DNA of 64,000 bases, taken from the NCBI GenBank assembly GCA_018664485.1, contig JABJOE010000006.1, positions 7,294-71,293 on the forward strand. Reading direction: 5' to 3'. The translations under genes and the position numbers were made by a program. The notes beneath the pieces were generated by a model, which ran no database searches, was not told the origin of the DNA, and saw only the letters and a program-made list of their open reading frames with translations. Source of the stretch: Candidatus Uhrbacteria bacterium. Its GTDB lineage: Bacteria > Patescibacteriota > Patescibacteriia > UBA9934. Shown in pieces: positions 626-47,208 of this stretch (the stretch's first letter is position 1; each line of letters starts with the position of its first letter).

Positions 626-1012
626 ATGCGTATACAAAATTTATTTTCCCCCATTCGTGTTGAACACTTATTGTGTTCAATTTAGCTAACTCTAGAACAA
701 TTTTTGTACTCTCAATTTACCACATCTTAGGATCTATTAAAACTAAACGTGGATAAGTAGCTACAGGTAATAATTCAGAAACGCCTTTCTCCTGAGCCTG
801 TGCTGTCTAGGGGTAGGTCGGTCTTCACAATCTGCAGAACCCGGTGTCCGTCGATTACCAATGGTTTCGACGGATAGGTTCTGCTATTCAATTACTCCGC
901 CAAACCGTGACCTTAGACTTGCTCGGAGCGTTTCTGAATTTTATTACCCTTCGCTGTGGTTAAGGGAAATACGACAGCGGCAGCAATGCGTTTACCGTTG
1001 TTCAGTCGGAAT

Positions 1013-21534: not shown

Positions 21535-22008
21535 TTATTCCTTCGGTGCAATTAACCGCGCAACAATCTCGCGAACACGATTACCGTCAACGTTACCTTT
21601 TAATTCCTTCATTACAGCTCCCATTGCTTTCCCCATTCCACCGGCGTCCCCATCTTCCATTTCATCCACAACTTTTTGCACAGCAGCCTCCAAATCCTCG
21701 TCACTCATCTCGGGTGGCAAGTACTTCTTTAAAACTTCAATCTCTACGCGAGCTGCCGCAGCTAAATCCTCACGCTCCCCTTTTACAAACTCCCCAAGAG
21801 CATCGTTCATCTTTTTAACATCAGAACGCACAACGGAAATCACATCCGCATCTTCGAGCTCGCGCTTAAACTCAATCACCTGATTCTTCAAAGAAGCCAT
21901 CAGCATGCGAAGTATGCTAAGCGTCTGCGTGTCCTTAGCTTTCATCGCGACAACTAGGTCGGCTTGAATATCTTTAAATAAACTCATATTGCAATGGTTA
22001 TAGTACAC
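21535..22008 (-). CDS. GatB/YqeY domain protein.
   Basis: Central ...LKKYLPPEMSDEDLEAAVQKVVDEM...GMGKAMGAVMKELKGNVDGNRVREIV... is typical of the YqeY/GatB C-terminal domain. The true start may be the internal Met (MSLFKD, nt 21987). Confidence 0.8.
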   Translation of the reverse strand: MYYNHCNMSLFKDIQADLVVAMKAKDTQTLSILRMLMASLKNQVIEFKRELEDADVISVVRSDVKKMNDALGEFVKGEREDLAAAARVEIEVLKKYLPPEMSDEDLEAAVQKVVDEMEDGDAGGMGKAMGAVMKELKGNVDGNRVREIVARLIAPKE

Positions 22009-22183
22009 CTCTAATGGTAAGAGTTGATCGACTGCGGGTCAAGTAACATGTGGCCAAGGCTCTGCAGAAAATAAAGCGATGCGTGGGCATAGTCCTTACA
22101 AGTAACCGTATTTTGCGTTAACTTTAATGAGTGAAGGGAAGATAAATTTAAAACAGGTTTACGGATCGAGTCCTTATACGACC

Positions 22184-22343
22184 AGACCTCTACATACGCA
22201 CATGTTCTGCATTCATTTCATATGGATGTTTGAGCGAAACGAATGACGACCGAGGAGGCATAGTAGAACTATACCGACGAGGTTGGAGTTTGTTGTAGCC
22301 AAATCATACAATGAATGCAGAACATGGGCGTCTGTAGAGGTCT
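22184..22343. repeat. 160-bp element bounded by 34-nt terminal inverted repeats (2 mismatches) with a 91-nt spacer. Candidate MITE-like element or long-hairpin structured RNA.
   Basis: Left arm agacctctacatacgcacatgttctgcattcatt (22184-22217). Right arm caatgaatgcagaacatgggcgtctgtagaggtct (22309-22343) is its reverse complement apart from 2 substitutions. Located in a 370-bp non-coding gap. Confidence 0.5.
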
Positions 22344-22344
22344 A

Positions 22345-22380
22345 AAAACAAAACGAGGCCGTTAGGCCTCATTTGTTTTT
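22345..22380 (-). terminator. Rho-independent (bidirectional) terminator after rpsU.
   Basis: gaggcc-gtta-ggcctc hairpin flanked by an A-run and a T-run, immediately after the rpsU stop. Confidence 0.6.
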
Positions 22381-22627
22381 AACGACGACGTCCTCGGCGC
22401 TTGTCCTCTACAAGCTTACCGATACGAACGAGCCATTCACGCTTCTCCGCTTTTTTGAGCGATCGAAGCTTAGAAGCTTTACGCTTGTTACTTGCATCCT
22501 TGGTCTTATGAAATCGACCAGACTGCAAAGTAAAGCGTTTTCCGCTTCGTTGGTAGCGACGAGTCCATCGGCGGAATGCCGCTTCAAAACTCTCACCTTT
22601 CTTTCTTTTTACGTATATATCAGACAT
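22379..22627 (-). CDS. rpsU: 30S ribosomal protein S21.
   Basis: 82 aa. MSDIYVKRKKGESFEAAFRRWTRRYQRSGK... and a basic C-terminus. Confidence 0.85.
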   Translation of the reverse strand: MSDIYVKRKKGESFEAAFRRWTRRYQRSGKRFTLQSGRFHKTKDASNKRKASKLRSLKKAEKREWLVRIGKLVEDKRRGRRR

Positions 22628-22759: not shown

Positions 22760-24820
22760 ATGACGCTTCGTATTTCATCAATTTCGCTGCTATTTGCAGC
22801 TTTTATACTCGCACCCTTCAGTCAGGCGCTTGCCATTGCAGGCTCAGACTCCTGGTATGACACCTATTCTGACGGTACAAATTTCGTATATTACGGGATA
22901 ACTTCAGATGACGATACTATCTATGCAGTTGGATACACAGGTGCCATTGCAACTTCAACAAATGGAGATGATTGGGATTTGCAAAATATAACAACCGAAA
23001 GCCTCTACGACGTAGCGGAAAGTGACTACGGAATAGTTGCTGTCGGAGGGGGTGGAGAAATTTATACATCAATAGATAGCGGAGACTCGTGGCAAAGCCA
23101 AACATCTCCGACTACAGCTGACTTATTGGCTGTTGAATTCCGTGGTAACAAAGGATATGCAGCCGGAAGCAGTGGAATATTAATCACAACGATTGACGGT
23201 GGTCAAAGTTGGTCAACGGCTCTTGCGACCTCATCAAACAGTTTTCACGGTATGCATGTTGGTGTTGGTGAATCATGGATGGTCGGATCATCTGGAACTA
23301 TCAATAACAACGGAGCATTCGCAGGATTATTCGGAGCACAAACAAGCGGCGTTGGAAATAACTTATTCGATGTATATTTCCAAGATGATGATTTGACAGG
23401 TTGGGTAGTTGGAACAACTGGAACACTTCTTGCAACTACGGACGGTGGGTCAACGTGGTCAGCTGCCACATCTGGTACCTCTGAGCACCTATACTATATT
23501 GTTGGCGACGATGAAGATGATGACCACTTCTACATCGTGGGGGAAAATATTCTCATGGAAACGACAGACGCTGGTGCAAGTTTCGACACAGTAACTTTCA
23601 GTACCTTGTCTTTATACCAGATGATTGCCGGTACAGTTTTTGAAGACAAGATGTACCTCGCCGGACTCGATTCAGGCGGAGGCGTCGTAGTAACTACGGA
23701 TACAAACGCACCAACAGCGCCCGCTATTATTGGCGTAGACCCAACCTCCCCAACCGCTGAAACTGACATTACCTTGAGCTGGCATACAACTTCAGACGAT
23801 GAAACAAGCATTGACGAGTATCTTGTATACCTAGACGGTGTATATGTAGATTCACCAATTGTATTTCTTTCCGGTAGCTACGAATTCACAGGCCTCGCTG
23901 AAGGAAGCTACGAACTTGGAGTGAGCGCTAAAGATGATGCCGGCAACGAAAGCGCGATCAGTACAGAAACGGTTGTAGTTGATCAGTCAGGTCCATCTAT
24001 TACAAGCGAGAGTCCAACGGAAGCTACTGTCGACACAGCGGTTAGTGTATCTGCAACAGTTACAGACTCACTATCAACTATCGACGGTTGTGCCTTGTAC
24101 ATCGATTCAGTATCGAGCGGAAGCATGAGTGCAAGCGGAAGCACATACTCACTAAGCCAGACATTCACTTCTACCGGTGATTACAGTGCATACGTTGCAT
24201 GTGACGACACTGTTGGAAACATCTCGGTTGGATCTACCTGGACAATCACCGTAAGTGAAGATAGCGGATCAGGTTCTGGTTCGGGTGACAGTGGCTCAGG
24301 AGATTCCGGCGATAGCGGGGACTCTGATGATAGTGGAGACGTTGAAGAGTCAGCAGATACAAGCACACTTATTAAGATGCAGTGTGAAGGTGGCGAAGCT
24401 GCAGACGATCCATGTAAAGCTGTTTACTACTACGGATCAGACGAAATGCGTCACGCATTTACAAACGAAAAAGTTTACTTCACTTGGTACGAAGACTTCG
24501 ATGATGTGATCGTTGTAACAGACGAATTCATGTCTTCAATTAGTCTCGGACCAAATGTTACTTATCATCCAGGAACCAAGATGGTTAAGTTCCTGACTGT
24601 AAACACGGTGTACGTTGTGGAGCAAGGTGGTGTGCTTCGTGGAATTACAAGCGAAGATGTTGCAACTGACCTTTACGGATCAGACTGGAATACAAAGATT
24701 GATGATATCTCAGATGCATTCTTTGGAAACTATTCCTTTGGAGATGATGTGGACGACGCATCCGATTATGACGTCGATGATGCGTTAGACTCCGTAAGCT
24801 CTCTCGACGACAACTTCTAA
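22760..24820 (+). CDS. Secreted protein with BNR/Asp-box (Ycf48/sortilin-like) beta-propeller repeats, an Ig/FN3-like middle, a Gly-Ser-Asp linker and a C-terminal domain of unknown function.
   Basis: 686 aa. Signal peptide MTLRISSISLLFAAFILAPFSQALA. Repeated S/TxDxGxxW motifs (TSIDSGDSWQS, TTIDGGQSWST, TTDGGSTWSA, TTDAGASF). Linker GSGSGSGDSGSGDSGDSGDSDDSGD. Confidence 0.75.
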   Translation: MTLRISSISLLFAAFILAPFSQALAIAGSDSWYDTYSDGTNFVYYGITSDDDTIYAVGYTGAIATSTNGDDWDLQNITTESLYDVAESDYGIVAVGGGGEIYTSIDSGDSWQSQTSPTTADLLAVEFRGNKGYAAGSSGILITTIDGGQSWSTALATSSNSFHGMHVGVGESWMVGSSGTINNNGAFAGLFGAQTSGVGNNLFDVYFQDDDLTGWVVGTTGTLLATTDGGSTWSAATSGTSEHLYYIVGDDEDDDHFYIVGENILMETTDAGASFDTVTFSTLSLYQMIAGTVFEDKMYLAGLDSGGGVVVTTDTNAPTAPAIIGVDPTSPTAETDITLSWHTTSDDETSIDEYLVYLDGVYVDSPIVFLSGSYEFTGLAEGSYELGVSAKDDAGNESAISTETVVVDQSGPSITSESPTEATVDTAVSVSATVTDSLSTIDGCALYIDSVSSGSMSASGSTYSLSQTFTSTGDYSAYVACDDTVGNISVGSTWTITVSEDSGSGSGSGDSGSGDSGDSGDSDDSGDVEESADTSTLIKMQCEGGEAADDPCKAVYYYGSDEMRHAFTNEKVYFTWYEDFDDVIVVTDEFMSSISLGPNVTYHPGTKMVKFLTVNTVYVVEQGGVLRGITSEDVATDLYGSDWNTKIDDISDAFFGNYSFGDDVDDASDYDVDDALDSVSSLDDNF

Positions 24821-24844
24821 ACCACAACAACGAAGACAAACAAA

Positions 24845-24880
24845 AAAACCGCCGGCTAACGCTGGTGGTTTTTACTTTAA
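24845..24880 (+). terminator. Rho-independent terminator after the 22760..24820 gene.
   Basis: aaaaaaccgcc...ggtggttttt stem with one G·U pair, followed by a T-run. Lies between convergent genes. Confidence 0.5.
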
Positions 24881-24929
24881 ATGCGAAACGCCACTCAGTC
24901 CACGATGGAACCGAGCGGCATGAGTTGCC

Positions 24930-25748
24930 TCAGACTAGAATAGCTACATTCTGTACTGAAAGACTTCGCAGATAGCGATCTGCAAGCAACAGAGCTGTAA
25001 GCGTGTGCATATCACACAAAGTTGAACCGATCATTCCGGGCACATCGGCGATAGGAACGAGGCGAGACTTGTGATCAACCTCTCCATCATAGCGACCGAG
25101 ACTAGGCATATCTTGTTCCGGCGGGAATACTACGCTCACCAGAAAGATATCCGGCGCCGCACTATCTGTTCCCGTGTTCTGAAAAACCTTTCCAAGAGAA
25201 GCTACGGAGCGGATACCTACAACCGCATCATCGCCAATCTCCTCAGACATCTCGCGAAGAAGCACCCTTACTCCAGGTACTCTCAGGTCTTCAAGCGAGC
25301 CTAACGAGCTACCTCCGCTCGAATACTGAACATCTTCATCTTCAGTGAAGCCACGAGGAAGTCCCGTGACCCAATCACCAACACTATGACGCCACTCCTT
25401 GACTAGTGCCAGGTACTGCACCCCTCTATGCTCGATAATGACAACGAACACCGCACCGTCACTCACAGCGCCGTTTGCGTTGTAACGCATCGGCAGTTCT
25501 ATGATGCGACCATCCTTCAGGCACACCGCACAGTAGATAGTCCGGTGAAACCTAGGTGTACGTTCATCGACATGGTAGATGCCGAGAATCAACTGCTCGC
25601 CATCATTCCCACCAATACTTTCACGCGGCTTGAGACCACGATCTGACAACCAGAGATTGAGCGCAGCAAGGCGTTCATCTGGATCCTTGATCATCGCCTC
25701 CAGCTCATGACCTTTCTCAACGAACAAAGAATGAATATTCACTGTCAT
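24930..25748 (-). CDS. Hypothetical protein with a possible degenerate Nudix-like segment. By eye its GC is higher than the flanking genes.
   Basis: 272 aa. ...GLPRGFTEDEDV...VRVLLREMSEEIGDD resembles a split Nudix box. No confident family. Confidence 0.5.
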   Translation of the reverse strand: MTVNIHSLFVEKGHELEAMIKDPDERLAALNLWLSDRGLKPRESIGGNDGEQLILGIYHVDERTPRFHRTIYCAVCLKDGRIIELPMRYNANGAVSDGAVFVVIIEHRGVQYLALVKEWRHSVGDWVTGLPRGFTEDEDVQYSSGGSSLGSLEDLRVPGVRVLLREMSEEIGDDAVVGIRSVASLGKVFQNTGTDSAAPDIFLVSVVFPPEQDMPSLGRYDGEVDHKSRLVPIADVPGMIGSTLCDMHTLTALLLADRYLRSLSVQNVAILV

Positions 25749-25972: not shown

Positions 25973-25996
25973 CAAAAAAATCCCACTTTGGGATCT
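25973..25996 (-). terminator. Candidate terminator in the long gap downstream of hisS.
   Basis: atccca-ctt-tgggat hairpin followed on the minus strand by TTTTTTTG. About 135 nt after the hisS stop. Confidence 0.4.
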
Positions 25997-26130
25997 ATTC
26001 GCTCGTTTCGAAGGGTGTACTCATTTGAGACTAGCTCTAGGCGTAGGGAAAATGGTGAGAAGCCGTACTAACTGTACGGTGACGAACCATAGGGGCCCTA
26101 GAACAACGAGATAGTCCAAATGAGCAGCCC

Positions 26131-34314: not shown

Positions 34315-36660
34315 ATGAAACGTCTCCTTATTGTAGAGTCGCCTACCAAGGCCAAAACAATCAAAAAGTTCCTCGGGTCAGATTACGAGGTAACTTCTTC
34401 TTTTGGGCATATTCGTGATCTTCCTCGAAAGGAGATGGGAGTAGACATGGATAACAAATTTGAGCCTACATACGTTGTTCCAGACAATAAGAAGAAACGA
34501 GTAGCTGATCTAAAACGAGCCGCAAAAGGAGTAGACGAAATCTATCTAGCGACTGATGAAGACCGGGAAGGAGAAGCGATCGCTTGGCATATTGCTGAGA
34601 TTTTGAAAATCAAAACAGAAGACATTAAGCGCATCACATTCCACGAAATTACAAAGCACGCGATTGAGCACGCACTGACAGAAGCTAAGGGGCTGGCGAT
34701 GCCTGTTGTTGAAGCCCAGCAAACTCGCCGCATCCTAGACCGTCTCGTTGGATACGAGTTGTCTCCATTCCTATGGAGCAAGGTACGTCGTGGTCTTTCT
34801 GCTGGTCGTGTGCAATCTGTATGTGTACGCCTTGTTGTAGAACGTGAACGTGAACGAAATGCTTTTGACCAAGATGAGTACTGGACTATAGAAGGACTAT
34901 TTGAGACAGGTACGGCTGTCATGGAAGGAAAGCTTAATGCTGTCGATGGTGAAAAGTTGAAGAAACTTTCAATCGGGACTGAAGCTGCTGCGGCAAAGAT
35001 AATTGACGACCTTAAAGGTGCTAGTTTTACAGTTGATGCAATCACAAAAAAGCAGGCATCTCGAAAACCACCTAAACCTCTCACAACATCTTCCCTTCAG
35101 CAGGAAGCGAACAACAAACTTGGTTTCTCTGCAAAACAAACAATGACGCTAGCGCAGAAACTATATGAAACAGGTCGCATCACTTACATGCGTACCGACT
35201 CTTTGAACCTAGCTGACAAATTCCTAGGCGAAGCACAGAGCTACATCAAAGCAACTTTTGGAGATAACTACGCAACCGGTGCGCAAACATACAAAACAAA
35301 AAAGAAAGGGGCACAGGAAGCTCATGAAGCTATCCGCCCAACAGACCCAAGCTTGCATCCGGACAAACTACAAGCTGAGCTTGAAGCTGGTCAGTGGAAA
35401 CTTTACAACCTTATTTGGCGCCGAACGCTCGCAACACAATTCCCTCCAGCAAAGCTCGAAAGTACTGCAATCGACCTTCTTGCAAAGACATATAACTTCC
35501 GAGCAAATGGTAGCGTTATCGTGTTCGACGGATTCATGAAGATCTATAAGAGCGCAAAGGAAACCATCCTGCCAGAGCTTAAAAAAGGTGATGATGTAAA
35601 AGCTCAGTCTATTACGCCAGAGCAGCACTTCACACAGCCACCAGGTCGCTATTCAGACGCGACACTTGTCAAAGTACTTGAAGAGCATGGTATTGGTCGG
35701 CCGTCTACCTACGCCCCAACAATCAGTACGGTGATTGATCGTGGTTACGTAGATCGTGATGACAATAAAAAGCTCTTCCCTACTGACACGGCATATATCG
35801 TGACAGATCTTTTAGTGGAGCACTTTCCAAATATCGTAAACCTGGAATTTACTGCAACAATGGAACGAACGCTCGATGAAATTGCTGAGGGAACCGTTCA
35901 CCGTGTTCCAACGCTCGAAGCATTCTACGGACCATTCCACAAAAACCTACAAAGCAAAACAAAAGAAATTACATATGCTGACGTTGTAAAAGAACGTGAG
36001 CTTGGAGCCGACCCTGAATCAGGAAAAATGATCGTTGTAAAAACCGGACGTTTCGGTCCATACGTTCAACTTGGAGAATGGTCTGAGGAAGATAGAAAAG
36101 AAAAGATCAACAAGCCGAAGATGGCCTCTCTCATGAAAGACATGGATATGGAGACCGTGAAGCTTGAAGAAGTTCTAAAACTCTTTACCCTTCCACGTAC
36201 TGTCGGACAATTGGAAGATGGTACACCAATCACTGCACAAACCGGACCTTACGGACCATATCTGAAAGCCGGGAAAACAAATGCATCAATCGAAGAACCC
36301 CAGCTATTTAGTCTCGATGAAAAAGAAGCACGAGAGCTCATTATCGAAACTGCAAAAAAGAAAGCGGAGATGATGAAACCTTTGGCTGAACTTGGAGCAG
36401 ATACCGTGAGTGGCGAACCAATCGTCGTTAAAAACGGTCGTTTTGGCCCGTACGTAACTGACGGAAAAACAAACGCATCTATCTCAAAAAAGATTGACCC
36501 CATGACGGTCACACTTGAGATGGCGACTGAAATGCTTATCAAAAAACGTGAGCGGCAAGCAAAGAAAGGTGGTGCTAAAAAAGGAGAACCGAAAGCCAAA
36601 CCACTAAAGAAGAAAACTACAAAGAAAAAATCTACAGCAAAGAAAAAGAAGAAGGCCTAA
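34315..36660 (+). CDS. topA: DNA topoisomerase I with a Lys-rich C-terminal tail instead of Zn-ribbon repeats.
   Basis: 781 aa. Toprim N-terminus MKRLLIVESPTKAKTIKKFLG...EVTSSFGHIRDL. Active-site Tyr region ...RITYMRTDS... C-terminus KKGGAKKGEPKAKPLKKKTTKKKSTAKKKKKA. Confidence 0.9.
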   Translation: MKRLLIVESPTKAKTIKKFLGSDYEVTSSFGHIRDLPRKEMGVDMDNKFEPTYVVPDNKKKRVADLKRAAKGVDEIYLATDEDREGEAIAWHIAEILKIKTEDIKRITFHEITKHAIEHALTEAKGLAMPVVEAQQTRRILDRLVGYELSPFLWSKVRRGLSAGRVQSVCVRLVVERERERNAFDQDEYWTIEGLFETGTAVMEGKLNAVDGEKLKKLSIGTEAAAAKIIDDLKGASFTVDAITKKQASRKPPKPLTTSSLQQEANNKLGFSAKQTMTLAQKLYETGRITYMRTDSLNLADKFLGEAQSYIKATFGDNYATGAQTYKTKKKGAQEAHEAIRPTDPSLHPDKLQAELEAGQWKLYNLIWRRTLATQFPPAKLESTAIDLLAKTYNFRANGSVIVFDGFMKIYKSAKETILPELKKGDDVKAQSITPEQHFTQPPGRYSDATLVKVLEEHGIGRPSTYAPTISTVIDRGYVDRDDNKKLFPTDTAYIVTDLLVEHFPNIVNLEFTATMERTLDEIAEGTVHRVPTLEAFYGPFHKNLQSKTKEITYADVVKERELGADPESGKMIVVKTGRFGPYVQLGEWSEEDRKEKINKPKMASLMKDMDMETVKLEEVLKLFTLPRTVGQLEDGTPITAQTGPYGPYLKAGKTNASIEEPQLFSLDEKEARELIIETAKKKAEMMKPLAELGADTVSGEPIVVKNGRFGPYVTDGKTNASISKKIDPMTVTLEMATEMLIKKRERQAKKGGAKKGEPKAKPLKKKTTKKKSTAKKKKKA

Positions 36661-36690
36661 GCGGCCTTCTTCTTTTTTGCAGGTTTTTTA
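36640..36690. terminator. Bidirectional terminator shared by the convergent topA and 36657..39140 genes.
   Basis: aagaaggcc-taagc-ggccttctt perfect hairpin flanked by an A-run and a T-run. Both stop codons lie within or next to it. Confidence 0.5.
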
Positions 36691-39140
36691 TCAACTTTCT
36701 TTACCGGTTTCTTCTTAGGCTTCTTACCCCATCTCGCATTACGAGCGTCATCGCGTGACTCTTTCGCCCCCTTACCGTCATCGCGTATCTCTTTCGCCTC
36801 CTTACCTTCACCAGATACGCTACCCAACAGATCAGCGCCAATGTCGGTGGCACCGCCCAACAGATCAGCACCTATATCAGCAATATCTTCCTGTACATTG
36901 CCCCAGTTTTTATCTATTTCTTCATTACCCTTTGAAACAGCTGTAATACTTTTATCTTGTTGACCTACAAGCTCCAGAGCGCCTTCTTTCAAGAAATTCC
37001 ACATGGACTTAGCAGCCATTCTAGTAGAGTTCAATCCAATTTTTACAGAATTATAGGCAGCACTCAAACCTACTCTTGCCCCTTTAACACCGCTCTTGAG
37101 AACAAATCCTGAACCCGCTAAACCAACTGTAGCTACCGCCGGAATCCTACCTACAGCCTTAACAGCCGTCTCTTCACCTGATTCATTTAGTTTTTTTAAT
37201 TTATCATAATGAATAGACGCTTCCAACTGCTTAATTGCGCCTCGCGGATCTTGCTCATATAAATCCCTACGAGATTCCATCCATGACTCTGCATCATCCT
37301 CCGACATACCCGACTCAATCATCATAGCAACCGCCATAACGCCAAGAGCCTCAAGCCGTTTAGGTCCCGTAATATCTCCAAGTTCACGAATATTCTCATC
37401 ATTACTCTCTTTTTCCAATGCCGCATCACGATCCTCTTTACTTAATCCACGCATCCTCTCTCTGAAATTTTGAAGTCTATCAGCGTCAATACCACGAGCC
37501 TCCTTACGATCGGTCAACTCCATCATCTTTAATTCAAATTTGCTATCTTCATCATCTGGGTTAAAAAGTGAACGTTCACCACCCCTCTCAATAACACCGG
37601 GTGCAACCTCATCAAGTCCAAGCGCCAAAGGAATATCCCCTCCGGACGTACCATCAGGAGATTGTAAATATGAAGGCACCTCAGGCTCCTCATCACTGGT
37701 CAATGCTTCCCAATCATCTGCAAGATCTTGTTCATCAAGTGAGAAACTCTCGGCCTCAGGCTTAGCAACGGGTTTCTCACTATTCCTCTCTAACGCCTCT
37801 ATCCGGTCAAGTGCCTCTTGCTCGTTATCAGGGCTGGTATTTACTTCCAACGCATTCCATTGATCAAGGATATCGTTCCCACTCGAATTAGTGGAAGTGC
37901 TAGCAACGGCCACATCGCCCGAACCGGTCGATGGTTCATCTTCATCTATGTCGTCTATTGTGTCATCACCACCCTCGATATCATCCATTGTCTCATAATC
38001 TTCGTCATCAAGAGAATCCTGAGATAACCCACCTTCCTCACCATCTAAAATATCATCATTAATCTCCTCGCTAGGTGAGGGATCAGTTCCTTCATCTATA
38101 TCATCCAATATATCGTCATTTGATGTTTCCCCACCTTCAATATCATCGCCCTCATCGTCAAGGATGTCATCATTTGAAAACTCGCCATTACCTACCGACA
38201 CTTCAGTGCCACTAGTAACCGCCTCGGCAATGTCAGAAGCCGCTTCGCCTCCCGTAGGTACTGACGATTCAACGCCAGAATCAACCGGCTCGCCACTAGG
38301 ATTCGATATTTCATTCATACTCTCAATTTTTGCAGCTAAATCAGCTCCCGCGCTAACTGCTTCGGCGACTATCTCAGCTGTACCTGAAGCTGCCGCTACC
38401 TCAACGACTCCCGCGCCAAGAACCTCACTTGCGACGTCCGCGCCAGCCCCGCCACCTTCAACTACAATACCCTCCTTAGCTCCACTAGTCCCCGATCCCA
38501 AAACACTGTCGATCACAACATCTGCGCCCGTCTCGATATTTTCTATACTAGCGCTAGGTTCCGGAGTGGCATCAACACCTTTATTCCTACCAGTAATCCT
38601 TACGGGAGGATCTTCCGATCCCGCAGGAGCTCTATTCTCTTCTCGTTGTGCTACGGCTACATGACCTTCATCCTCTCGCAAACCCTTAACAGAATCTTTA
38701 CGATGAGCCTCTTGAACATTAGAACCACGATCAGAATCTTGAGCCATCACGTCAGCTACATCCTGGTTACTATCCGCCCCCTCTTCCTGCTCTTCTTGCG
38801 CGTCAAGCTTAACAAACTCTGCCTCGCGAGCCTCGCCAATTCTATCTTTCTCATCCAATTCGTCTGAGCTTCTCGTATCCTCGTAAACACCTTTCATAAG
38901 GTCTTCATGAGAAGGAGGATTGCCCCAGTTTTCAACAATTTTTCCTTTTATTTTTCTTACCACAACTAAATCAACAGCTTTCGATGCGGCGACCTCCTCT
39001 CCAAGCACAGCAAGCTGTTCACTTATTTGCTTCTCTTGCTCAGCAAGCTCGCCAGCGCTAACCTCAGGTTGCTCTCTACCACCCTCAATTTTTTTCACCG
39101 CTTCAATTGTACCGTCTTCAGATCCTTCTACCATATACAT
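36657..39140 (-). CDS. Large (827 aa) highly acidic, low-complexity (probably disordered) protein with NDDILDD repeats and a Lys-rich C-terminal tail.
   Basis: No TM or signal peptide. Three SNDDILDDEGDDIEGG-like repeats. Ala/Gly/Ser/Glu-rich throughout. C-terminus WGKKPKKKPVKKVDKKPAKKKKAA. No catalytic motif seen. Confidence 0.6.
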   Translation of the reverse strand: MYMVEGSEDGTIEAVKKIEGGREQPEVSAGELAEQEKQISEQLAVLGEEVAASKAVDLVVVRKIKGKIVENWGNPPSHEDLMKGVYEDTRSSDELDEKDRIGEAREAEFVKLDAQEEQEEGADSNQDVADVMAQDSDRGSNVQEAHRKDSVKGLREDEGHVAVAQREENRAPAGSEDPPVRITGRNKGVDATPEPSASIENIETGADVVIDSVLGSGTSGAKEGIVVEGGGAGADVASEVLGAGVVEVAAASGTAEIVAEAVSAGADLAAKIESMNEISNPSGEPVDSGVESSVPTGGEAASDIAEAVTSGTEVSVGNGEFSNDDILDDEGDDIEGGETSNDDILDDIDEGTDPSPSEEINDDILDGEEGGLSQDSLDDEDYETMDDIEGGDDTIDDIDEDEPSTGSGDVAVASTSTNSSGNDILDQWNALEVNTSPDNEQEALDRIEALERNSEKPVAKPEAESFSLDEQDLADDWEALTSDEEPEVPSYLQSPDGTSGGDIPLALGLDEVAPGVIERGGERSLFNPDDEDSKFELKMMELTDRKEARGIDADRLQNFRERMRGLSKEDRDAALEKESNDENIRELGDITGPKRLEALGVMAVAMMIESGMSEDDAESWMESRRDLYEQDPRGAIKQLEASIHYDKLKKLNESGEETAVKAVGRIPAVATVGLAGSGFVLKSGVKGARVGLSAAYNSVKIGLNSTRMAAKSMWNFLKEGALELVGQQDKSITAVSKGNEEIDKNWGNVQEDIADIGADLLGGATDIGADLLGSVSGEGKEAKEIRDDGKGAKESRDDARNARWGKKPKKKPVKKVDKKPAKKKKAA

Positions 39141-46263: not shown

Positions 46264-46551
46264 CTATAAGTGTTTGTATCCAAGTCTCTTTAATTCATGT
46301 TGATGCTGTCGCTTAAATTCTCTGTGTCCACCTCCACTCTTCAAATAGACTTCACGAGCCATTGCATCATTCTTATTCTTATAATTTTCATAATAGAATA
46401 TTTTCGCAGGCAATCTGTGCTTTGTAGATTTTACAGAGCCTGATTCGTGAGCCCTTAACCGATCTTTAAGATTTGTAGAGTAACCGATATACAGCTGATC
46501 ATCTGAACAAAATAAAACGTAAACAAAATACATACATATACATCCTAGCAT
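46264..46551 (-). CDS. GIY-YIG nuclease-superfamily small protein.
   Basis: ...YFVYVLFCSDDQLYIGYSTNLKDRLRAHESG... GIY-YIG core with a conserved Arg and Glu. The true start is probably the internal MYFVYVL. Confidence 0.7.
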   Translation of the reverse strand: MLGCICMYFVYVLFCSDDQLYIGYSTNLKDRLRAHESGSVKSTKHRLPAKIFYYENYKNKNDAMAREVYLKSGGGHREFKRQHQHELKRLGYKHL

Positions 46552-46606
46552 TAGCGACGTCGGACGTCGCTTTTGGACCCGTCAAACGGGTCTCAGGCCT
46601 TCACAG

Positions 46607-46645
46607 CAAAAGACCCACGACGTAATGTCAGTGGGTCTTTTTGGT
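46607..46645 (-). terminator. Terminator downstream of tRNA-fMet.
   Basis: gacccac...gtgggtc stem followed by TTTTG on the minus strand. Additional palindromes cgacgtcggacgtcg and gacccgtcaaacgggtc lie at 46555-46597. Confidence 0.45.
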
Positions 46646-46676
46646 TGCCCGAACGGCTTTAGGCCGTCCGACGGCC

Positions 46677-46753
<77 letters not shown>

Positions 46754-46859: not shown

Positions 46860-46946
46860 GCCGCGATGGCGGAACTGGTAGACGCGCGGGACTCAAAATC
46901 CCGTGATGGCAACATTGTGAGGGTTCAAGTCCCTCTCGCGGCACCA
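46860..46946 (+). tRNA. tRNA-Leu (anticodon CAA), type II with a long variable arm.
   Basis: GCCGCGATGGCGGAACTGGTAGACGCGCGGGACTCAAAATCCCGTGATGGCAACATTGTGAGGGTTCAAGTCCCTCTCGCGGCACCA. Anticodon loop CTCAAAA. Encoded CCA. Confidence 0.85.
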
Positions 46947-47131: not shown

Positions 47132-47208
47132 GGCTGGGTAGCTCAGTTGGTTAGAGCGCGGGACTCATAAGCCTGAGGTCGAGAGTTCAAGTCTCTCTCC
47201 AGCCACCA
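47132..47208 (+). tRNA. tRNA-Met (anticodon CAU), elongator type. tRNA-Ile2 (lysidine) cannot be excluded from sequence alone.
   Basis: GGCTGGGTAGCTCAGTTGGTTAGAGCGCGGGACTCATAAGCCTGAGGTCGAGAGTTCAAGTCTCTCTCCAGCCACCA. D-loop and T-arm resemble elongator tRNA-Met. Confidence 0.8.

Follow-up and report, generated by a model that had tools for sequence, protein, structure and literature searches.

A probable MITE-like palindromic element between rpsU and yqeY in a marine Candidatus Uhrbacteria population, with a diverged copy at a second locus

How does a 160-bp palindrome with long terminal inverted repeats come to lie between two housekeeping genes of a Patescibacterium? CPR/Patescibacteria genomes are small and gene-dense and are thought to be poor in mobile DNA. 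The palindrome lies in a 64,000-nt stretch of DNA, here called the window, from a marine Candidatus Uhrbacteria (Patescibacteria) population, and it is flanked by the genes for S21 (rpsU, 22379-22627, - strand) and GatB/YqeY (yqeY, 21535-21987, - strand). Twelve metagenome contigs, from several samples and assemblers, were 99.8 to 100% identical to the window and showed no SNP in the intergenic gap. Since the element is identical in all contigs that cover the region, it is real and not an assembly artefact; the same absence of within-population variation means that constraint is not measurable from population variation. The parts of the locus used throughout are given here in window coordinates, with L058 denoting the contig that carries the second copy.

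22184-22343, + strand: the 160-bp element, which is the unit of homology; in the polarity used here, the window + strand is equivalent to the L058 - strand
22184-22217, no strand: left terminal inverted repeat, 34 nt, with an AGACC tip that is invariant across both copies
22310-22343, no strand: right terminal inverted repeat, 34 nt, of which 32 pair with the left arm; its GGTCT tip is likewise invariant
22218-22309, + strand: core, 92 nt, a degenerate palindrome that prolongs the hairpin
22201-22240, + strand: best conserved part of the element (alignment columns 18-57), CATGTTCTGCATTCA...ATGTTTGAGCGAAAC, with 36 of its 40 positions identical in the L058 copy
22344-22381, - strand: rpsU intrinsic terminator, with its stem at 22351-22374, its T-run at 22344-22350 and A and T tracts on both sides; a neighbour and not part of the element
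22009-22183, no strand: lineage-specific spacer, 175 nt, from the element to yqeY, unlike the L058 flanks and with no significant fold

A repeat finder recovered the two arms as 34-nt repeats with 94% complementarity (32/34) and 92 nt between them. The arm lengths, the matching and the coordinates of the initial annotation were thus borne out, and its 91-nt core measures 92 nt. A search of the 64-kb window that allowed up to three mismatches found the arm sequence at these two positions only, and 100 shuffled sequences yielded no match. Barring a weak 26-nt palindrome, this is the sole inverted repeat of at least 20 nt within 400 nt in the window. Where the arms mismatch, the opposed bases are T.C and A.G, which stay unpaired whichever strand is folded. 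The whole 160 nt folds into one unbranched hairpin in which pairing is carried on through the core. The fold energy, which had been suggested as a check, came to -83.3 kcal/mol for RNA of the + strand (z -12.3) and -67.3 kcal/mol for the - strand (z -9.7), with none of 200 shuffles as good; folded as DNA, the 160 nt gave -43.1 (+) and -37.6 (-) kcal/mol. A sliding 160-nt scan placed the element as the top fold outlier of the window on the + strand (z -6.2). The core by itself is significantly structured on the + strand only (-30.8 kcal/mol, z -6.0, versus -15.6 kcal/mol, z -1.15, on the - strand).

No base separates the element from the rpsU terminator: the last position of the right arm is 22343 and the T-run begins at 22344, so the element does abut the terminator as first described. 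Upstream, rpsU has a near-consensus promoter (TTGACA-17-TATTAT, 11/12), and the spacer on the other side of the element carries a promoter-like yqeY site (TTGACC-17-TACCAT, 22042-22014, - strand, 9/12). Within the extra sequence of the rpsU-yqeY gap, only the 160-nt hairpin is structured, the other 140-175 nt folding no better than shuffles. The initial annotation had seen no ORF, and we found only short ones of 39 and 32 amino acids overlapping the element; a six-frame translation search of the element against 5.8 billion proteins returned no relatives. We considered a type I toxin encoded by the 39-aa ORF (22127-22246) and rejected it: a long hydrophobic stretch is missing from its product, and the ORF has no conserved counterpart in L058.

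We compared the locus with the same gene pair in relatives. The adjacency of rpsU and yqeY is widespread and conserved across Patescibacteria, with short gaps, as judged from YqeY-based loci of GTDB genomes, and no homologue of the element was found in these loci. In five relatives whose YqeY is 69-82% identical to that of the window (L010, L012, L018, L020 and L021), the gap measures 53-89 nt, versus 391 nt in the window, and consists of the terminator plus a short stretch before the start codon. A similar terminator, including its A tract, stands at the same position in relatives that lack the element. The excess in the window, about 335 bases, runs from 22343, right after the terminator T-run, to approximately 22009, where similarity to the relatives resumes. 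None of these empty sites holds any portion of either arm. In two relatives, L010 and L020, only 18-22 nt separate the T-run from the yqeY ATG; this leaves no room for a yqeY promoter, and read-through of the rpsU terminator therefore probably expresses yqeY there.

A homologue of the element is present at a different locus of another genome. L058 is a 10.4-kb contig of a related Uhrbacterium whose FtsA is 89% identical to that of the window. A covariance model built from the window element alone (R1) matched L058:5241-5403(-) with 109.3 bits (E 5.9e-25). This homologue is 163 nt long, with 20-nt arms, AGACCCCACCGAACAACCAT and ATGGTCGTTCGGTGGGGTCT, that are 95% complementary. Over 159 aligned positions it agrees with the window copy at 119 (75%), and the 5-nt tips, AGACC...GGTCT, are the same in both. 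Beyond the tips, the flanks match at 34/95 and 35/95 positions even in an optimised alignment (36-37%, which is no similarity), and the identity drops exactly at the tips of the inverted repeats. With nhmmer, the L058 copy was found with an E value of 4e-18 in the R1 orientation, compared with 17 bits in the opposite one; the polarity of the element is therefore conserved. The L058 copy lies between ftsZ and nrdR and starts 5 nt past the ftsZ stop codon. This site is also empty elsewhere: the ftsZ-nrdR gap, 228 nt in L058, is an element-free 83 nt in L057, which is the window's closest relative. Each copy occupies a gap between co-directional genes, immediately behind a gene end, and both are oriented alike with respect to their neighbours.

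The 64-kb window and the 10.4-kb L058 contig each gave a single copy, and a search with a model made from both copies (R2) found no third member in approximately 680 kb (the window plus the loci). The further copies that the initial annotation had proposed to look for are thus represented by one diverged copy, elsewhere than rpsU-yqeY. The target-site duplications it had proposed to look for did not appear. No direct repeat flanks the window copy, whose flanks in element orientation read ..TACGACC|el|AAAAACAAA; those of the L058 copy read ..ATCGCAA|el|AACTATTAC and have no more than an AA in common, possibly by chance. No match to a 22-mer of the arm, ACGCMCATGTTCTGCATTCATT, turned up in genome contigs or viral contigs, and the single match in metagenome contigs was the same locus; these negatives carry little weight because the 22-mer is not conserved in the L058 copy, from which it is absent. 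A scan of viral contigs for the pattern of the conserved block also gave no match, and blastn of the 335-nt insert against plasmids and phages found nothing.

The second copy bears directly on whether the palindrome arose by accident or was made locally, for example by template switching during replication at the terminator, with neither mobility nor function. This origin would fit a single copy within the window that has no target-site duplication and adjoins an existing hairpin, the terminator. It does not account for a copy at an unrelated locus of another genome that is 75% identical, of the same length and with the same tips, and the empty sites of the relatives hold no portion of either arm. 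In symmetry, the arms (32/34) and the core are also too unequal for uniform decay of one inverted duplication. We consider a fortuitous palindrome, which had been named as the alternative should no other copy and no transcript turn up, to be extremely improbable and effectively refuted by the L058 homologue.

We determined how the fold has fared between the two copies by following the 63 base pairs of the + strand structure. Of these, 42 are the same in both copies, and 9 differ at both bases but are still pairs. In another 6 a single base differs and pairing persists, through exchange of G-U with G-C or A-U in either direction; 5 pairs are lost and 1 meets a gap. Paired cells made up 96%, versus 31-41% when the partners were slid by 1 to 3 columns, and 1-2 of 500 shuffles reached the observed values. 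At the level of two sequences only, these covariation counts show a palindrome that has been maintained and do not imply that RNA was the selected molecule; they cannot single out RNA because two inverted repeats that fit one enzyme would co-change too. The fold itself may be under selection, as compensation along the length of the stem together with conserved internal-loop sequences exceeds what end recognition by a transposase needs.

The two strands do not fold equally well. The RNAalifold consensus is -74.65 kcal/mol on the window + strand versus -52.7 kcal/mol on the other, and the L058 copy gives -97.1 kcal/mol on the L058 - strand versus -85.3 kcal/mol on its complement. The better-folding strand is in both genomes the one antisense to the flanking genes. 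The element runs opposite to its local background, since the - strand of the window is G-rich and folds better on average. Counting one-sided changes that keep a wobble pair, we found 6 on the window + strand and 2 on its complement, at sites where the copies differ. Among simulated decayed palindromes, the + strand energy advantage of 16 kcal/mol has a two-sided p of approximately 0.085, and the split of 6 versus 2 has a one-sided p of approximately 0.15. The strand asymmetry is not statistically significant; the choice leans to the + strand.

These structural results have to be weighed against two explanations in which RNA is the working molecule. For the other proposal of the initial annotation, a long-stem structured RNA, the evidence is mixed: compensatory changes preserve the hairpin, but neither a promoter nor a terminator travels along with it. 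The first is a functional cis-acting hairpin in read-through transcripts, from rpsU into yqeY and from ftsZ into nrdR, that would serve as an RNase III site, a 3'-end stabiliser or an insulator. Such a role is compatible with a mobile origin and differs in that the fold would be the selected function. It is consistent with a hairpin kept through 9 compensatory and 6 wobble-type changes and with the placement of both copies, like-oriented, right after a gene end between co-directional genes. The ftsZ-nrdR interval of L058 contains no further terminator, and its copy must therefore be transcribed along with the two genes; in the relatives with gaps of 53-56 nt the 18-22 nt from T-run to yqeY start make read-through of the rpsU terminator probable. 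Unrelated hairpins of 100-125 nt also occur in the hisS and rpsU 3' regions of the clade. However, the strand that would be co-transcribed with the genes is the one that folds worse in the window copy (-67.3 versus -83.3 kcal/mol), in the L058 copy (-85.3 versus -97.1) and in the consensus (-52.7 versus -74.65). Moreover, the window element sits behind a strong terminator, and most relatives manage without such a hairpin at these sites. We regard a cis-acting hairpin as rather unlikely to be the main explanation.

The second is an independent small RNA gene on the + strand, antisense to its neighbours, whose product of about 200 nt would consist of the long hairpin followed by the terminator, shared as a bidirectional one. 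The + strand folds better in both copies and, in the consensus, by 22 kcal/mol; the core is structured on that strand only (z -6.0 versus -1.15); the preference is contrary to a background that favours the - strand; and the wobble-keeping changes are likewise more numerous on it (6 versus 2). A terminator hairpin and a T-run also follow the element on the + strand. Against this, no promoter-like site of at least 9/12 lies upstream on the + strand, although canonical promoters occur in this organism, and similarity to L058 begins at the first base of the hairpin, so the copies have no promoter in common. Around the L058 copy, out to about 150 nt from each end, both strands lack promoter- and terminator-like sites, and the A tract of the rpsU terminator is also found in relatives without the element. 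Neither measure of strand asymmetry reaches significance (p approximately 0.085, two-sided, and 0.15, one-sided), and there was no Rfam match. Thus, no promoter or terminator of its own is conserved with the structure; covariation support is present in the two sequences, where co-evolving inverted repeats would look alike. A small RNA gene is in our judgment very unlikely.

Based on these results, we conclude that the 160 bp are probably one copy of a small non-coding palindromic element with terminal inverted repeats, MITE-like in nature, that has moved or been moved within the marine Uhrbacteria clade. We favor the MITE-like reading because there is a copy at a different locus, because similarity is confined to the inverted-repeat unit, and because the orthologous sites of sister lineages are empty. 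Terminal inverted repeats bound a short unit in both copies (34-nt arms in the window and 20-nt arms in L058, with shared AGACC/GGTCT tips). The unit is small and without coding capacity, the copies being 160 and 163 bp long with stop-ridden frames and ORFs of at most 39 aa. It occupies non-homologous sites whose orthologues are empty in L010, L012, L018, L020, L021 and L057. A target-site duplication, which is a further mark of a MITE, is found at neither the window nor the L058 copy. The window encodes housekeeping genes only, and Pfam identified no transposase, integrase or reverse transcriptase among its 35 proteins or the 5 proteins of the L058 contig. Membership in the MITE class is therefore incomplete, lacking a target-site duplication, a second copy in the same genome (in the 64 kb and the 10.4 kb read) and a transposase. 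The MITE-like proposal of the initial annotation has thus gained a second copy, confined similarity and empty sites, and it has to do without these same three marks.

If the element is MITE-like, a transposase-type enzyme supplied in trans may have inserted it by recognising both ends or the folded hairpin. In the window, the element would have entered the rpsU-yqeY gap immediately behind the terminator T-run. A transcript crossing the element, in practice rpsU read-through, would form a very stable hairpin with a near-perfect stem of 34 bp, which is a plausible RNase III substrate. As a side effect, the element could uncouple the expression of rpsU and yqeY.

In a variant of the mobile reading, what moves or is put to use would be one particular strand of the element in folded form. 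It would then be a CPR-specific hairpin element nearer to REPINs or attC sites than to classical MITEs and served by a strand-specific enzyme, or else a mobile antisense hairpin RNA. This variant is suggested by a stem that drifts with compensation while the fold, the internal-loop sequences that are not palindromic and the five bases at the ends are conserved. It also draws on the missing target duplication, on the identical orientation of both copies to their neighbours and on the fact that the better-folding strand is not the co-transcribed one. We nonetheless hold it to be quite doubtful.

Other long palindromes occur in the window and in its relatives, and none of those examined (window 757-962, window 26018-26126, L011 2637-2758, L012 991-1114, L021 104-449 and the L015 palindromes) is homologous to the element by sequence or by model. 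The one at window 757-962 is a 206-nt hairpin of -84.4 (+) and -79.4 (-) kcal/mol with a z of about -7 on both strands. It has a perfect 13-nt arm pair (772-784 and 928-940) and a 12x12 internal loop below the apical stem, a geometry like that of 6S RNA, and it has no Rfam match. It lies between the ftsA terminator (1043-1017, - strand) and the conserved region upstream of ftsZ, and the corresponding gap of L057 measures 150 nt without it. On the - strand, 26018-26126 forms a hairpin of about 110 nt that directly adjoins the hisS stop codon on its downstream side; a canonical terminator comes next, at approximately 25974-25995. Hairpins of 105-125 nt, different in sequence and flanked by A/T runs, also stand at the end of hisS in L012 (991-1114) and L021 (2396-2500).

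At the rpsU locus of L011, a GC-rich 122-nt hairpin (2637-2758) lies between the rpsU stop codon and the terminator and folds much better on the antisense strand (-78.2 versus -52.6 kcal/mol); the N run inside yqeY at this locus, with coding sequence repeated on both sides, is a scaffolding artefact. A 346-nt palindromic region in L021 (104-449), with 44-nt arms that are 82% complementary and energies of -157 to -168 kcal/mol, is situated upstream of a signal peptidase gene and overlaps its start. L015, from a related Uhrbacterium, has two AT-rich palindromes of about 55 nt (2357-2420 and 2796-2852; TTTAAA.TGTTTACTTC.AAATAAACA..TTAAACA) that are 86-87% identical to each other and flank rpsU, one upstream of its promoter and one downstream of its terminator. 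These observations show that long hairpins of unrelated sequence recur in the gene-end gaps of the clade and that the element is one case of a general turnover of palindromes at operon junctions. The L015 pair shows that small palindromic repeats do multiply in this clade. Together with the insertion of the unrelated 206-nt hairpin in the window, this pair weakens the initial premise that mobile repeats are rare in CPR genomes.

The window contains further structured or variable sites. Four short GC-rich hairpins cluster at 46540-46680 and give the second strongest fold signal in the window; Rfam identified only tRNAs there, and tRNA genes lie beside the cluster at 46680-46753 (-), 46860-46943 (+) and 47132-47205 (+). 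A bidirectional terminator at 36607-36716 separates the convergent genes for topoisomerase I and an 827-aa protein. Its perfect 15-bp stem (36643-36677) is nested in a further 21-nt arm pair, so that the complete hairpin, about 110 nt, extends into the ends of both genes. The approximately 70 nt upstream of ftsZ (window 640-700, L057 11330-11400) are highly conserved (GTACAAAAATTGTTCTAGAGTTAGCTAAATTGAACACAATA) with paired TTGTTC and GAACA motifs, and this stretch may be a regulatory site of ftsZ. The stretch between hisS and rpsU (22760-25748 in the window) is a rearrangement hotspot: it has no gene in L010, one 300-aa gene in L012 and two genes in L015, and the window has a 272-aa gene and a 686-aa BNR-repeat gene.

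The occurrence of the element at rpsU-yqeY and at ftsZ-nrdR in sister lineages indicates that small non-coding elements do move in CPR genomes. Such elements can reshape operon junctions, as a gap of about 55-90 nt is now 391 nt long and includes a promoter-like yqeY site. The R1 and R2 models and the blocks CATGTTCTGCATTCA and ATGTTTGAGCGAAAC define a searchable family, which could be used to track strains, to find the enzyme and to test for RNase III processing. The importance of the finding is modest: two copies are known, the mechanism is an inferred one, and the element is a new member of an already known type.

The element can be compared with several known systems. SRP RNA and retron RNA were rejected on structure or context. 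Rfam gave nothing credible up to an E value of 10 in the surroundings of both copies, and three tRNAs only in the whole window at gathering thresholds. With 6S RNA and other long-hairpin small RNAs the element shares a length of about 160-200 nt and a long closing stem. It differs from them in that no promoter was found and conservation stops at the hairpin. We rejected 6S RNA itself: the minimum-energy and consensus folds have small internal loops only and no large central bubble, and RF00013 gave no match.

The attC sites of integrons resemble the element as imperfect palindromes conserved in structure that retain their fold and outermost ends despite a variable stem sequence; the position directly after a stop codon (in L058) and a possible strand preference are also alike. 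However, 160 nt is longer than usual for attC, and the neighbours rpsU, yqeY, ftsZ and nrdR are core housekeeping genes and not cassettes. An integron attC site was rejected, as the ends AGACC...GGTCT do not match R''/R' (RYYYAAC...GTTRRRY) and neither the window nor the L058 contig has an integrase.

REPINs are doublets of REP sequences that are mobilised by RAYT (Y1) transposases. Unlike in REPINs, the arms of the element are not short REP palindromes, and a GTAG motif of the window copy is not conserved in L058. Copy number is low, and no RAYT (Y1 transposase) gene was seen in the window or the L058 contig. What the two have in common is an extragenic hairpin whose evolution involves the entire unit, the stem changing by compensation, as well as a position at gene 3' ends and the lack of a target-site duplication.

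The element also resembles in build bacterial MITEs that fold into long hairpins, such as the Correia elements of Neisseria and the ERIC/IRU elements of enterobacteria. Correia elements duplicate TA at their target, and the element differs from both groups in having no target-site duplication and in being seen, so far, once per genome rather than in tens to hundreds of copies. Its AGACC/GGTCT tips and its host, a reduced CPR genome, also set it apart, as does the absence of similarity in Rfam, plasmids, phages and viral contigs. In common with Correia and ERIC/IRU elements, it is 100-200 bp long, non-coding and bounded by terminal inverted repeats, and the whole forms an imperfect palindrome. 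It is likewise intergenic near gene ends and present in some and absent from other related genomes and, if transcribed, would yield a long duplex suited to RNase III.
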